Shown here: positions 28,024 through 32,712 of the stretch, piece after piece
How the letters are laid out: each line of letters opens with the position of its first letter
How positions within the stretch are numbered: the stretch's first letter is position 1
Assembly (NCBI GenBank): GCA_040387495.1
Contig: JAZKDQ010000013.1
Location: 21,289-85,288 of the forward strand
Origin: Pseudomonadota bacterium
GTDB lineage: Bacteria; Pseudomonadota; Alphaproteobacteria; Paracaedibacterales; CAIOTO01
Direction of reading: 5' to 3'
DNA: 64,000 nt
Program-made: the position numbers and the translations under genes
Notes under the pieces: generated by a model
Database searches by the model: none
Told to the model about the DNA's origin: nothing
Seen by the model: the letters and a program-made list of their open reading frames with translations, nothing else

Positions 28024-28063
28024 GTCATCACGAGGAACCATCGGTGACAGGAGTGATCCAGGA
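28024..28063. repeat. Solo arm of the MITE-like element
   Basis: gtcatcacgaggaaccatcggtgacaggagtgatccagga matches the left arm at 32791 (catcacgaggagcacagctctgtaaccatccag). No partner arm was found. Confidence 0.5.
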
Positions 28064-28100
28064 TGTTGGGAATAATGAATTGACCTCAGTAGCAAAAATA

Positions 28101-29018
28101 ATGAAACCCTACCCAAAGAGCACACAACATACGGCTTCCCTCTGGAATAAGAAGGGAGCCTTTTTTATTGTATTATCCGCCTTACTGGCGAGCACAAGTA
28201 ATGCGCTGGTTCATGGGCTTGCAACGCCAATCTCTGCCGGGCAATTGCTTTTTCTAAAAGCAGGAATTGGTTTTCTATTTTGCCTTCCATGGTTGCTTCG
28301 TCATTGGTCAAGCGTTGAGCACACGCCAAACAAACGGTGGCACGCACAAAAAGCAATCATTGGCGCAATTGGAAATGTTCTTTTAATCATGGCGTTGCAA
28401 AAATTACCCCTCGCTGATGTGACGACGTTATCATTAACAAGCGCGATCCTTACAACACTCGGTGCGGCGCTATTTTTCAAAGAATCGCTTAGGCCATCGA
28501 CAATCGCAGCGCTACTGTTAGGCGGCATCGGTGTGTGCGTTGTGCTAAAACCATCAATGACGATGTTTTCATGGGATGCACTGTTGCCATTGATGTCAGC
28601 CGTTTGTTACACAGCCTCATCATTGTTTGTGAAAAAAGTATCCCTTGTTGACTCAACAGAGGTATCACTCACTTACTTGCTCGGCGGGATGACGCTCCTA
28701 AGTGCCCCGTTTGCTTATCATTCATGGGTGCCTATTCATGCGTGGGATTGTGTGGCCCTTGCTGTCATCGCATGCTTTTATTGTGTTGTGCAGTGGTTGT
28801 TGATTTATAGTTATGCTCATGCAAGCGCGGCATTTCTAGCGCCATTTAAATTCGTACGTTTCCCGTTGGCGTGCGCTTTTGGCATCATTTGGTTTGGTGA
28901 AATCCCATCCTGGTACGTTATCGGTGGCGGCGTATTGATTTTTGCTTCGTGTAGTTTGATTCAATACACGCGTTATGATCCATCGTATTTGTTAGCGCAA
29001 CGGTCTAAAATGACATAA
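28101..29018 (+). CDS. EamA/DMT-family transporter
   Basis: Ten predicted TM segments in two EamA-like halves. ATG 28101 (MKPYPKST) is preferred, because the GTG 28044 extension is encoded by the repeat arm. Confidence 0.8.
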   Translation: MKPYPKSTQHTASLWNKKGAFFIVLSALLASTSNALVHGLATPISAGQLLFLKAGIGFLFCLPWLLRHWSSVEHTPNKRWHAQKAIIGAIGNVLLIMALQKLPLADVTTLSLTSAILTTLGAALFFKESLRPSTIAALLLGGIGVCVVLKPSMTMFSWDALLPLMSAVCYTASSLFVKKVSLVDSTEVSLTYLLGGMTLLSAPFAYHSWVPIHAWDCVALAVIACFYCVVQWLLIYSYAHASAAFLAPFKFVRFPLACAFGIIWFGEIPSWYVIGGGVLIFASCSLIQYTRYDPSYLLAQRSKMT

Positions 29019-29194
29019 TCTTTCAAACAAAAGCGAAATTAATCTTCGTAGCTTTTTGCAAGTTCCGTCGCATCTGTGAAAGCTGGACCTAAAAGGCTAA
29101 GCATTCCCCCCCCTATATTTGCATAACAAGGGGTAATTAAGAAAAAGACTAGAACGTATGATTTAATATAAAATTTCATACAAGATTTCTTCCG

Positions 29195-29312
29195 CTAAAT
29201 ATTCACATGTTTGAAAACTGCGCATTCTGTTGAATAAACAAAAACCGAGATTTCTCATATTTACGCATGATTGCGTTACATTCTTGCATGCACGTTACTG
29301 AATTCTGCGAAC
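29195..29312 (-). pseudogene. Decayed duplicate of the parE 3' end
   Basis: Starting at the stop codon, 29195-29263 aligns with parE 30697-30765. 21 of the first 26 nt are identical. After a 1-nt gap there is a perfect 15-mer (ttgaataaacaaaaa). Weaker similarity continues to about 29312 (ctgaattctgcg vs ctgaatccgtcgc). The frame is broken. Confidence 0.8.
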
Positions 29313-29347
29313 AAACGTCAATATATTTTCATGAGTGAATTTGATAA

Positions 29348-29395
29348 ATGGTGATAATTTCACCATTATGTGGTGATAATTTCACCATTATGGTG
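29348..29395. promoter_or_regulatory. Operator-like array: perfect 22-bp tandem repeat giving five alternating ATGGTGA/TCACCAT half-sites, overlapping the predicted promoter of 29433-30635
   Basis: tggtgataatttcaccattatg is repeated exactly at 29349-29370 and 29371-29392. The half-sites lie at 29348-54 (+), 29360-66 (-), 29371-76 (+), 29382-88 (-) and 29390-95 (+). TAAAAT at 29406-29411 is a likely -10, and AAGG lies ~10 nt before ATG 29433. Confidence 0.55.
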
Positions 29396-29432
29396 CTACA
29401 CTAGTTAAAATACTTAATAAGGCATTGCTTTT

Positions 29433-30635
29433 ATGTATGCACGTTTTCTTGAAAACAAATTGAAAGCCAGTCAACTTCCGGTCATTTTTATAAATGGTGC
29501 ACGCCAGGTAGGGAAAAGTACGCTCGTTAAAAAGATTTTTGAGAAAACCCATGATTATTACACTCTTGATAATCCTCAGATTCTTTCACTTGTACGTAAG
29601 GATCCCTTAAATTTTGTTCGCTTTGCACGAAACCCAATTATTATCGACGAGGTACAGCGCTGTCCTGAAGTACTGCTCGCTATAAAAACACTTGTCGATG
29701 AAAAAAGAATCCCCCAACAATTTATTCTAACGGGCTCTGTCAATATTTTACGCATAAGCGATGTTAGTGATTCTCTAGCAGGGCGCATGGGGGTTTATTC
29801 GCTTTGGCCTTTGTCGATGGAAGAAATTCTTGGAAAACAATCCGATTTTTTAGCAGGACTCTTTCAACAAAAAATATCGCTGGGAAATGCTGATACAAGC
29901 AATCTTGTTTTTGATATCAAAAAAGGAGGCTATCCTTTATCTCTTTTGTCTGAAAATAATGCTGATCGTGCAGAGTGGCATCGAACATATCTTGAGCAGG
30001 TGTTAGGGAAAGATATTCGCGATCTATCAAATATTGAGGGTTTGACGGAAATGCCCAATATTCTTGGGTTGCTTGCAAGTCGCGCTGGATCTTTGCTCAA
30101 TCTAAATGATTTATCACGTTCTCTTCAAATTCCTCATACTACGCTTAAACGTTACTTAAACCTTTTAGAAATGTCTTATTTATATTGCCCCTTGAAACCA
30201 TGGTTTACAAATTCAGGAAAACGTTTAATCAAATCAGATAAAATCTATTTAAATGATACAGCCTTGATAGAATCAATTCTTCATCGTGATATTGATAAAG
30301 ATCCTGCATTATTTGGGCATGTTTTGGAAAATTTTGTAGCAGCAGAATTAACGAAACAAATATCGTACAAACAACTACCTATCAGTTTATATTTTTATAG
30401 AACAATGACTGGTAATGAAGTGGATTTTATTTTAGAGGGTAAAAATGGTCAAGTCGTTGGTTTGGAAATTAAGGGGGCTTCTCAGTTTTCTCAAAAAGAT
30501 GTAAAAGGGTTACGTTTGTTGAAAGAAAGCCTTGGTGAAAAATTTACAATGGGGCTTATTTTATATCGGGGCACGCAAGTATTACCTATTGAAGAAAATA
30601 TTTATGCCGTCCCATTGTCATATTTGTGGACATAA
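29433..30635 (+). CDS. AAA-type ATPase with a C-terminal DUF4143 / PD-(D/E)xK-like domain (COG1373-type)
   Basis: 400-aa ORF with Walker A GARQVGKST and a Walker B-like IIIDEVQ. The C-terminus EVDFILEGKNGQVVGLEIKG fits D...E-x-K of restriction-endonuclease-fold domains. Confidence 0.85.
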   Translation: MYARFLENKLKASQLPVIFINGARQVGKSTLVKKIFEKTHDYYTLDNPQILSLVRKDPLNFVRFARNPIIIDEVQRCPEVLLAIKTLVDEKRIPQQFILTGSVNILRISDVSDSLAGRMGVYSLWPLSMEEILGKQSDFLAGLFQQKISLGNADTSNLVFDIKKGGYPLSLLSENNADRAEWHRTYLEQVLGKDIRDLSNIEGLTEMPNILGLLASRAGSLLNLNDLSRSLQIPHTTLKRYLNLLEMSYLYCPLKPWFTNSGKRLIKSDKIYLNDTALIESILHRDIDKDPALFGHVLENFVAAELTKQISYKQLPISLYFYRTMTGNEVDFILEGKNGQVVGLEIKGASQFSQKDVKGLRLLKESLGEKFTMGLILYRGTQVLPIEENIYAVPLSYLWT

Positions 30636-30678
30636 ACTGGACAAGTTTCCGTTATGATTGCAAATTTGTCCAGTTTTT
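30635..30678 (+). terminator. Terminator hairpin between convergent genes
   Basis: AACTGGACAA (30635-30644) pairs with TTGTCCAGTT (30666-30675), followed by TTT. Confidence 0.5.
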
Positions 30679-30696
30679 ACCTCTGAATAATAATGT

Positions 30697-32712
30697 CTAA
30701 ATATCCACATCTTTAAAGAATGGAGCATTCTCTTGAATAAACAAAAAACGAAATTCCGCATTCTTCCCCATCAAACGCACCACAAAATTATCTGAATCCG
30801 TCGCCTGATCAGGCAACAACTGCACTTGCAACAATGTTCGGTGCGCAGGTGACATCGTCGTTTGACGCAATTGATCCACAGGCATTTCACCCAAACCTTT
30901 AAAGCGACTGATCTCAACCTTACTATTCGATCGGAATTTTGTTTTCATAAACAAATCTTTTTCCGCGTCATCGCGTGCATATAAAACGGTACCACCATTC
31001 GCTAACCGATAAAGTGGAGGTTGAGCCAAATACACATAACCTTTTTCGATAATTGGGCGCATTTCTTGGAAAAAGAAGGTCAGCAACAACGATGCAATGT
31101 GCGCACCGTCCACGTCCGCGTCGGTCATAATAACAATCTTGTGGTAACGCAGTTTTGTCACATCGCAATTCTTGCCTACGCCGCAACCCAGCGCTAACGT
31201 CAAATCAGATACTTCTTGGTTCGCTTTTAACTTATCGAGCGAAGCTGTTGCAACGTTTAAAATCTTACCTTTAAGCGGCAATACGGCCTGCGTTGCTCGG
31301 GCACGTGCCTGTTTAGCTGACCCGCCTGCTGAATCACCCTCGACCAAGAAAATTTCGCATAGACTTGGGTCTGTTGATGTGCAATCGGTCAACTTACCAG
31401 GCAATCGCAATTTTCGCGTCGCACTTGCACGAGCAACTTCTTTCGCTTTTTTCTTACTCAAACGCTCATCAGCACGCATTAGCGTAACTTCTAAAATACG
31501 TTCAGCCAACTTTGGATGCCCAGACAACCAATGATCCAAATGATCTTTAATAGTATTTTCCACAAGGCGCGTTGCATTCTGGGAAGAAAGCTTTTCTTTT
31601 GTTTGCCCTTGAAACTGTGGCTGTGGGATAAAGCATGACAAAACTGCAATAACAGCGCCATTTACGTCTTCTGCCGTTAACGTTGATGTACGACGATTAT
31701 TAATACGTTCACCATAATCACGAATCGCACGCGTCAATGCAGCACGCAGACCTGCCTCGTGTGTACCACCTTGAGGGGTTGGAATCGTATTGCAAAACGA
31801 TACAATGCGCGAATCCTCACCTAAATCAATATCGTCTTCCATGATCGCTTGCGGCCACAACATAGACCATTCAACACGCCCTTGTTGATCAGGAAAATTA
31901 GCATCGCCGCTAAAGCAGTTTGTATCACTCAACACCAAGTCAGGTTCGTCTTTAATCAAATCACGTAAGTAATCGCTCAAACCATCAGGGTAAAACAAAC
32001 GTTGTTCACGTGGCACGCGATCATCTTTAATCAGTGATGGGTCACACGACCACATGATCTCAACACCCTTAAACAGGTACGCTTTCGCACGCGCCATTTG
32101 GTAGATATGCGCAGCCTTAAACGTGTGATTATCAAAAATTTCGGGGTCAGGATGGAATCTAATCGATGTACCTTTTTTACGCGTTGGCGTTTCATCTTGC
32201 GTTAACGTGGTAATTGGCTTCCCACGAGAGTAGTCCTGACGGTAGCGCACTTTATCACGGCACACTTCAACTTCGACTAAATCAGATAGCGCATTCACAA
32301 CAGATACACCCACACCATGCAAACCACCGGATGTACTGTATACGTTTGTATCGAACTTACCACCCGAATGGAGGGTTGTAAAAATGACCTCAAGCGCTGA
32401 CAGTTGCGGAAATTTTGGATGCGGATCAACAGGAATACCGCGACCATCATCGCGAATCATGACAACGTTATTCTTTTCAACACTGATTTCAATACGCTTT
32501 GCAAATCCTGCAACAACTTCGTCCATCGAGTTGTCAAGAACCTCGGCAACCAAGTGATGCATTGCTTTTTCATCTGTACCGCCAATATACATGCCAGGGC
32601 GCTTACGGACAGGTTCAAGCCCTTCAAGGACTTCGATGTCTTTCGCGGTGTAATCAGCTTTTGGCTTTTTCGCAAGCGGTGTTTTGGATTGGAATAGATT
32701 TAGTTCTGCCAT
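30697..32712 (-). CDS. parE: DNA topoisomerase IV subunit B
   Basis: 671-aa ORF with the GHKL ATPase (LEGLEPVRKRPGMYIGGTDEKAMHHLVAEVLDNSMDE), the Toprim motif (EIFLVEGDSAGGSAK, IMTDADVDGAHI) and a size and N-terminus typical of alphaproteobacterial ParE rather than GyrB. Confidence 0.88.
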   Translation of the reverse strand: MAELNLFQSKTPLAKKPKADYTAKDIEVLEGLEPVRKRPGMYIGGTDEKAMHHLVAEVLDNSMDEVVAGFAKRIEISVEKNNVVMIRDDGRGIPVDPHPKFPQLSALEVIFTTLHSGGKFDTNVYSTSGGLHGVGVSVVNALSDLVEVEVCRDKVRYRQDYSRGKPITTLTQDETPTRKKGTSIRFHPDPEIFDNHTFKAAHIYQMARAKAYLFKGVEIMWSCDPSLIKDDRVPREQRLFYPDGLSDYLRDLIKDEPDLVLSDTNCFSGDANFPDQQGRVEWSMLWPQAIMEDDIDLGEDSRIVSFCNTIPTPQGGTHEAGLRAALTRAIRDYGERINNRRTSTLTAEDVNGAVIAVLSCFIPQPQFQGQTKEKLSSQNATRLVENTIKDHLDHWLSGHPKLAERILEVTLMRADERLSKKKAKEVARASATRKLRLPGKLTDCTSTDPSLCEIFLVEGDSAGGSAKQARARATQAVLPLKGKILNVATASLDKLKANQEVSDLTLALGCGVGKNCDVTKLRYHKIVIMTDADVDGAHIASLLLTFFFQEMRPIIEKGYVYLAQPPLYRLANGGTVLYARDDAEKDLFMKTKFRSNSKVEISRFKGLGEMPVDQLRQTTMSPAHRTLLQVQLLPDQATDSDNFVVRLMGKNAEFRFLFIQENAPFFKDVDI

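Follow-up and report, generated by a model that had tools for sequence, protein, structure and literature searches.

A decayed second parE 3′ end beyond a candidate defence gene in an alphaproteobacterium: a possible scar of homology-anchored insertion

How does an essential gene come to have a second, dead end on the far side of its neighbor? This question is raised by a stretch of 64,000 nt from contig JAZKDQ010000013.1 (hereafter the window, meaning the whole stretch that was analyzed), in which a gene for a predicted ATPase-nuclease lies between the 3′ end of parE, encoding topoisomerase IV subunit B, and a decayed copy of that same end. An earlier note on this DNA had described a copy of ~110 nt and had read it as an attL/attR-like scar of a cassette docked at the parE stop codon. 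Our analysis indicates that the copy is 78 nt long. We give an even chance to the reading that it is the displaced former terminus of parE, left behind when recombination within the final 78 nt of the gene brought in DNA with a parE end, a hairpin and the ATPase module; homology, and not an integrase, probably anchored this event. The locus is laid out as follows (window coordinates).

28044-29018, plus strand: eamA (DMT-family, that is drug/metabolite, transporter; Pfam EamA), the left flank of the junction, which closes the MFS-yebC-eamA block
29039-29179, minus strand: orphan open reading frame (ORF) of 46 aa with a hydrophobic N-terminus, read from the sequence
29195-29272, minus sense: dead copy of the parE 3′ end, covering the last 26 codons and the TAG stop (alignment and repeat search)
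29273-29346, no strand: unique spacer of 74 nt outside the conserved ATPase module
29347-29392, plus strand: operator-like array with two perfect 22-bp tandem units at 29349-29392 (repeat search)
29393-29432, plus strand: putative promoter and leader of the ATPase gene, by consensus reading only, with a −10-like box at ~29394-29402
29433-30635, plus strand: ATPase-nuclease of 400 aa with AAA_14 and DUF4143 domains (Pfam; PADLOC PDC-S01)
30634-30681, no strand: hairpin with arms at 30634-30648 and 30662-30676 and A and T runs on either side
30697-30774, minus strand: functional 3′ end of parE, the proximal member of the duplicated pair (alignment and repeat search)
30697-32712, minus strand: intact parE (671 aa; Pfam HATPase_c, DNA_gyraseB, Toprim and DNA_gyraseB_C)

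Loci of relatives are given L numbers, and L001 is the same genome as the window in a Logan assembly. The best matches to ParE came from metagenome-assembled genomes (MAGs) of freshwater alphaproteobacteria, one of them labelled Candidatus Paracaedibacteraceae, and ParE of the window is 96-97% identical in amino acids to those of L002, L003 and L008.

The earlier note had proposed an alignment with a shuffled-sequence control. Local alignment of 29195-29330 with 30697-30832 spanned 65 columns at ~81% identity with one 1-nt gap and scored 68, against 17.0 ± 2.6 and a maximum of 31 in 2000 dinucleotide-preserving shuffles (z ~20). The same segment was the best non-self match of the parE tail across the whole window, and a repeat search recovered the two alignment blocks at spacings of 1502 and 1503 nt. 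BLAST against the parE genes of relatives, together with a codon-level alignment of this genome and nine relatives, traced the homology over 78 nt (29195-29272), which correspond codon for codon and in the same orientation to 30697-30774. Similarity further into parE was found only at the level of shuffles, 34-66% of which equalled the score when 29273-29345 was compared with parE of the window, L002, L003 and L008; the duplicate is therefore 78 nt. The note was thus right about a second parE end in the same orientation beyond the ATPase gene, but not about its length (29195-29312).

Two further claims of the note, that the duplication begins exactly at the stop codon and that the distal copy is frame-broken, were confirmed. 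The complement of a TAG stop opens both copies, and a 1-nt deletion shifts the distal one into the −1 frame. Where ParE ends in RLMGKNAEFRFLFIQENAPFFKDVDI and the stop, the dead copy reads ..IMRKYEKSRFLFIQQNAQ and, past the −1 frameshift, FKHVNI and the stop. Besides this deletion it carries 10 unique substitutions. Its identity with the parE termini is 77-81% for the window, L002, L003 and L008, and 65-68% for L004, L005 and L007. Outside parE itself, 29195-29272 was not conserved in any retrieved locus of a relative, and Rfam matched neither the dead copy nor the hairpin.

Past the two stops there is no similarity. Unrelated DNA follows on either side, namely the hairpin beyond the functional end and the small ORF beyond the dead one. 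Since the similarity stops at the stop codon and gives way to unrelated sequences, two different parE-downstream arrangements appear to have been joined here, unlike in a simple local duplication. Downstream of parE there is a 3′ fragment in the same orientation followed by what is presumably its own former neighbor, which is the pattern by which a displacement scar is recognized. The ATG of this presumed original neighbor, the 46-aa ORF, lies 15 nt past the stop of the dead copy and is preceded by GGAAG. No homologue of the ORF was found in any retrieved locus, and no NCBIfam or Pfam family matched it. Its N-terminus is signal-peptide-like, and eight C in a row at 29106-29113 (read as G8 on the coding strand) make a potential slippage or phase-variation tract inside it.

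The interval between the two ends holds the operator-like array, the ATPase gene and the hairpin, as described before, but not these alone, for the 74-nt spacer lies there as well. The spacer showed no significant similarity to parE, the ATPase gene, other cassettes, the rest of the window or the retrieved loci. A repeat between 29273-29296 and 29422-29445 was considered as a relic of the 5′ end of an ATPase gene and rejected; as the spacer matches no ATPase cassette significantly, we regard this repeat as fortuitous. There is no recombinase in 29195-30810 or within about 9 kb, where the neighbors are housekeeping genes, in agreement with the earlier statement that neither integrase nor transposase is present.

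The junction itself is specific to this lineage. A HIT gene is kept upstream of parE in many relatives, and the gene after parE varies in almost every one of them: it is a 301-aa hypothetical protein, a 519-aa protein, mutS or others, including, across L002-L016, genes that we named by eye from their translations as TPR-like, metG, L,D-transpeptidase-like and ABC ATPase. Throughout the clade, synteny breaks at the 3′ flank of parE. On the other side, the MFS-yebC-eamA block is kept in the relatives with EamA homologues (L099-L103; 81-86% identity), and the downstream side of eamA is a second edge of acquisition or rearrangement. The HIT-parE and MFS-yebC-eamA blocks are both kept in relatives yet never adjacent, so their junction must be lineage-specific, and the dead parE tail sits within it. 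Neither parE-eamA nor parE-small-ORF adjacency was found by a parE search of genome contigs (80 loci) and three look-ups of EamA homologues; no relative offers an empty site because the downstream neighbors of both genes differ nearly everywhere. After eamA, the relatives carry a higB/higA toxin-antitoxin pair, a GMC oxidoreductase or hypothetical genes, never parE (variable segments at L099 1931-2553, L102 3735-5744 and L101 2493-6183).

To place the copy in time, we used the parE genes of the relatives, which group by nucleotide distance as ((window, L002, L003), L008), L004, (L005, L007). Jukes-Cantor (JC) distances from the window at four-fold sites are 0.72 (L002), 0.84 (L003), 0.89 (L008) and 1.3 (L004), and the neutral distances per lineage are ~0.36 (L002), 0.45 (L008) and 0.66 (L004). 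Functional parE genes of close relatives differ by 3-4% at codon positions 1 and 2 (p = 0.03). At these positions the dead copy differs at 9-10 of 51 sites, corresponding to a neutral decay of d ~0.2 (rough 95% range 0.09-0.40). As this value is smaller than 0.45 and 0.66, the scar is probably younger than the linkage of parE to parts of the module that is seen in L008 and L004, and the copy seems to have died well after the deeper splits of the clade. At five sites the parE of the window is uniquely derived and the dead copy keeps the state of the relatives (e.g. Ser TCT versus Phe TTT); at two others the dead copy and the parE of the window share a state absent from close relatives. This pattern is compatible with descent of the dead copy from the parE of this very lineage, and we make no claim of a foreign origin for the remnant.

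The hairpin folds at −18.1 kcal/mol on the plus strand (z = −5.6), where a T5 run follows, and at −16 on the minus strand; the features of an intrinsic terminator, a stable stem-loop and a T-run, are present on the plus strand and weaker on the minus strand. It is likely to act as a bidirectional terminator between the ATPase gene and parE. A simple terminator scan, limited to loops of 8 nt, missed it, by our own reading because the structure past the continuous stem is larger. With its loop, the hairpin is identical at 39 of 41 positions to the sequence after the parE stop of L008 (8038-8078), and it also follows parE in L004; both loci are without the ATPase gene. In L008, the hairpin and T-run are separated by 14 nt from one operator unit (22/25) in the same orientation as in the window, and a −10-like remnant comes next (8038-8116). 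The best match of this stretch in the whole window was the operator unit, with a score beyond all shuffles. The arrangement in L008 looks as if the ORF alone had been cleanly deleted from an order like that of the window. No ATPase pseudogene fragments were detected downstream of parE in ten relatives, and neither L008 nor L004 has a second parE tail. Neither hairpin nor operator unit occurs in L002 and L003, which among the sampled relatives are nearest to the window in parE distance. Including its 11-nt loop, the hairpin is 95% identical between the window and L008, and the four-fold sites of parE are only 48% identical; either the loop is under functional constraint or the segment has recently been exchanged.

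These observations can be accommodated in the following course of events, of which we infer the direction, the donor and the recombination mechanism. At first, parE of this lineage would have had the small ORF as its downstream neighbor. A segment of ~1.5 kb would then have come from a related bacterium with the module already beside parE; the cargo of this segment would comprise a parE 3′ end with its stop, the hairpin, the PDC-S01-type AAA+/PD-(D/E)xK gene with its promoter and 22-bp array, and the spacer. One side of this segment would have been joined by homologous pairing within the parE coding sequence and the far side illegitimately, at position −78. Homology-facilitated illegitimate recombination would produce this outcome, and so would a single crossover with a circularized fragment, in neither case with an element-encoded integrase. 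With its end supplied by the incoming DNA, parE would have remained intact, while the old end, the small ORF and then eamA would have been pushed 1.5 kb away, and the old end would have decayed. The ATPase would be cargo, a candidate defence gene probably repressed via its operator array, and not the agent of insertion. Acquisition, or re-acquisition, of the module from a relative would be the simplest history because the linkage exists in L008 and L004, is absent in L002 and L003, and the scar is comparatively young. What the locus records is an insertion, not a demonstrated mobile element, and the scar is of a known general kind.

Several results weigh against this reconstruction. Neither a donor sequence nor an empty site was found, and no relative among those sampled has an intact ATPase gene at parE. 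Sliding-window identity of parE against six relatives gave no mosaic signal, the nearest relative never switching, and in its last 78 nt the gene now comes closest to hairpin-free L002, not to L008. The dating depends on 51 sites only, and the 95% interval of d overlaps the values for L002 and L008. The conservation of the hairpin (39/41 against 48% at four-fold sites) could mean function, not recent exchange. Finally, the model does not account for a hairpin-like element in a parE-free context at L085, described below.

Close homologues of the ATPase gene (61-73% identity) occur in seven further contexts, each as a lone gene. Six lie between or next to housekeeping genes (PBP/105-aa ORF, FKBP/GTPase, sucB/motB, folK/tatD, RNase D-like and RND efflux), and the seventh follows SNF2/PIF1 helicase genes. 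In all eight loci, the GC content of the ATPase gene is 2-6 points below that of its flanks. Homology between the loci begins at the operator array and stops at the stop codon, so the array belongs to the regulatory module of the ATPase gene itself. No parE-like sequence was found at the seven other loci. Upstream and downstream alignments around these seven copies remained at shuffle level, and no flanking duplication was found around them or around a more distant one at L017. At L085, the operator array of the closest homologue (73%) is preceded, at a distance of 60 nt, by a hairpin-like element (4052-4083) that matches the hairpin of the window at 26/33 positions, in a parE-free context. 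This element is situated in a divergent intergenic region, where a role as terminator would make no sense. A lost upstream cassette or a circular intermediate might be behind it. A circular permutation cannot be asserted from it, as the near-palindrome fits both orientations (26/33 and 25/33, counted by hand). A dif/Xer site was also weighed for the hairpin and the operator, and gave no convincing match.

The attL/attR-like scar proposed in the earlier note is supported in part. A displaced, dead terminus is there, the dead and functional ends bracket a compact module, and such a scar would result from DNA entering the 3′ end of a gene that is then rebuilt; nothing, however, points to an att-type element driven by an integrase. 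One explanation along this line, which we consider unlikely, is an integrase-less integrative cassette that is mobilized in trans by a recombinase encoded elsewhere, its mimic of the parE end serving as att site and the two copies being attL and attR. Direct repeats of the target 3′ end do bracket a compact unit with one boundary exactly at the stop codon, and the occurrence of the ATPase subfamily in eight contexts, at a GC content 2-6 points under that of the flanks, is what mobile cargo would show. However, no recombinase lies in or near the unit, the seven other contexts have neither flanking repeats nor a parE-like segment nor any shared boundary beyond the array and the stop codon, and the sampled relatives hold no empty site. 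The differing contexts may merely be those of different paralogues, as COG1373 genes are often multicopy. The hairpin and operator at the parE stop of L008 and the hairpin at that of L004 could mean repeated docking, but a second parE copy is missing from both, and there the hairpin follows parE in the absence of the ATPase gene. Likewise, the order hairpin-operator-ATPase in L085 would, next to operator-ATPase-hairpin in the window, fit a circular intermediate, but this is weak evidence given that the hairpin fits both orientations (26/33, 25/33). A bolder form, in which the array, the PDC-S01 gene and the hairpin make up a hitherto unrecognized integrase-less mobile cassette that docks repeatedly at gene 3′ ends, notably that of parE, appears to us highly improbable. 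It would use the hairpin or palindromes as recombination sites, pass through a circular intermediate or have its own PD-(D/E)xK nuclease open the target, and leave the duplicate as attL/attR, with decayed copies in L008 and L004. If such a cassette did dock by itself, this would be a new integrase-less mobility mechanism. For the pattern seen, homology-anchored re-acquisition of a parE-linked segment from a relative is no poorer an explanation than a docking mobile cassette.

The event may instead have been intragenomic, which we also doubt. The order parE-hairpin-ATPase would then be vertical, and the 78 nt would be either a templated patch at the junction of the eamA and parE blocks or the rest of a trimmed tandem duplication. 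The position of the copy exactly at the junction of two synteny blocks, both edges of which are rearranged in nearly every relative, speaks for this, and so does the site pattern, which is compatible with the window's own parE (two shared sites, and five derived in the parE of the window only); the linkage of hairpin and operator to parE in L008 would be consistent with vertical inheritance. But the boundary at the exact stop codon would be left to chance, L002 and L003 would have to have lost the hairpin and module independently, and a trimmed tandem duplication should have left a hairpin after the second stop, where none exists. It might finally be argued that 29195-29272, a divergent intergenic stretch directly upstream of a small ORF, resembles parE fortuitously or is a functional element that serves the 46-aa ORF as promoter, leader or small RNA. 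A z of ~20, the sole match of this kind in 64 kb, codon-for-codon alignment with the ParE termini of several genomes, the missing Rfam match and the lack of conservation outside parE in any relative make this extremely improbable, and chance similarity can be taken as excluded.

If the dead copy is the displaced terminus of parE, its closest counterparts are the orphan 3′ fragments in type VI secretion system (T6SS) effector-immunity, Rhs and contact-dependent inhibition (CDI) loci, which are explained by homology-facilitated illegitimate recombination (PMC5361080). In these cases, too, the homology anchor lies in a conserved part of the resident gene, a new 3′ end arrives with downstream genes, and the old 3′ end and its neighbor are pushed along in the same orientation and decay, all without a dedicated recombinase. 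In contrast to them, the gene in the window is the essential housekeeping gene parE, one and the same sequence is encoded at both ends in place of alternative toxin domains, the duplication covers no more than 26 codons, and we see a single event rather than an array. Islands and prophages integrated at gene 3′ ends resemble the locus in that target-derived direct repeats bracket the insert, reach the gene end and leave the gene intact. The insert in the window, however, is one gene of 1.4 kb without an integrase, its repeats are ~80% identical rather than nearly identical, no empty site or recurrence of the repeat was seen in other genomes, and the other copies of the module are repeat-free. 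Integron cassettes, too, carry one gene with an imperfect-palindrome hairpin 3′ of it and turn up in varied contexts, but the unit in the window has its own predicted promoter and operator, unlike the promoterless ORF of a cassette, IntI and attI are lacking, the hairpin has no demonstrated attC features, and the hairpin also follows parE where there is no ATPase gene. The locus is a clean and dateable case of an essential gene surviving insertion into its own coding end, and the 3′ flank of parE is a recurrent point of rearrangement and acquisition in these bacteria, which are Holosporales-like and probably host-associated.

The gene enclosed by the two ends encodes a protein with AAA_14 (E = 3.9e-27) and DUF4143 (E = 7.2e-39) domains in Pfam, and matched the PADLOC profile of PDC-S01 (PDLC04790) over its full length (E = 2.1e-134). 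The DUF4143 family, whose function is unknown, is of the PD-(D/E)XK type (PMC3424549). The putative defence candidate PDC-S01 consists of one gene, and one survey ranked it as the fourth most common defence system in prokaryotes when candidates were counted; most such candidates, PDC-S01 included, still await experimental validation (PMC12988326). Judged by its domain architecture, the strong PADLOC match, the kept ATPase and PD-(D/E)xK residues and its single-gene occurrence, the protein in the window is a predicted member of this candidate family. The Walker A/B and PD-(D/E)xK residues G27, K28, T30, D72, E73, E329, D331, E345 and K347 are invariant in 30 sequences. An AlphaFold2 model (predicted local distance difference test, pLDDT, 88; predicted template modelling score, pTM, 0.90) resembles the archaeal AAA+ ATPase SSO1545, STAND NTPases (Apaf-1, Avs4 and plant NLRs), Orc1/Cdc6 and the nuclease Card1; the predicted fold is that of an AAA+/STAND-like NTPase with a PD-(D/E)xK domain. 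No integrase or transposase appeared among the structural matches listed (ranks 1-50). A sequence search found no solved structure, and a metagenome scan with the ATPase returned two distant matches only (26-27% identity).

What sets this Holosporales-like subfamily apart from PDC-S01 as described is the 22-bp operator array and the associated hairpin, for which we found no published description. The unit in the window, TGGTGATAATTTCACCATTATG, is present in two perfect tandem copies, each with the palindrome GGTGA-N5-TCACC. Upstream of all seven close homologues, a 22-bp unit of the form GTGGTGA-W5-TCRCCATnn occurs in 1-4 tandem copies; the arrays end ~45-56 nt before the ATG and run into a TG-n-TAnnnT box (L082 5923-5959, L084 1336-1394, L085 4132-4168, L086 5877-5957, L091 4934-4970, L094 136-172, L095 4112-4126 and L098 about 4924-4968). 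In the 1.16 Mb of retrieved DNA, the motif is almost confined to the upstream regions of the ATPase gene. The number of units differs even between near-identical loci, being two in L082 and three in L084. By consensus reading, TGcTACACT (29394-29402) forms an extended −10-like box in the window, with the −35 position overlapped by the last operator unit; this stretch aligns with the TG-TAAAAT / TGATAAGGT boxes of the other loci. The array is probably a repressor site overlapping the −35 position, and it may be bound by the winged helix of the ATPase itself. Conserved palindromic operators of variable unit number at the promoter lead to a testable hypothesis of autoregulation and DNA binding for the uncharacterized PDC-S01.

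Some other loci showed additional features. L017 comes from a Paracaedibacteraceae MAG further removed from the window (ParE 64% identical); there, the gene of a remote DUF4143 ATPase (8019-9227; 31% identical) begins ~60 nt past the parE stop and is co-directional with it, with neither an operator array nor a parE duplicate. Its position beside parE may be a coincidence or a second use of the parE site. In L094, one operator unit (GGTGAATTTTTCACC; 1421-1435) directly follows the stop of the ATPase gene, in addition to the two upstream, so that units stand on both sides of the gene. In L086, a long inverted repeat (ATCCTACCCGTCACTTTT ... AAAAGTGACGGGCAGGAT, 17/18) encloses ~70 nt at about 5760-5860, just upstream of the four-unit array.

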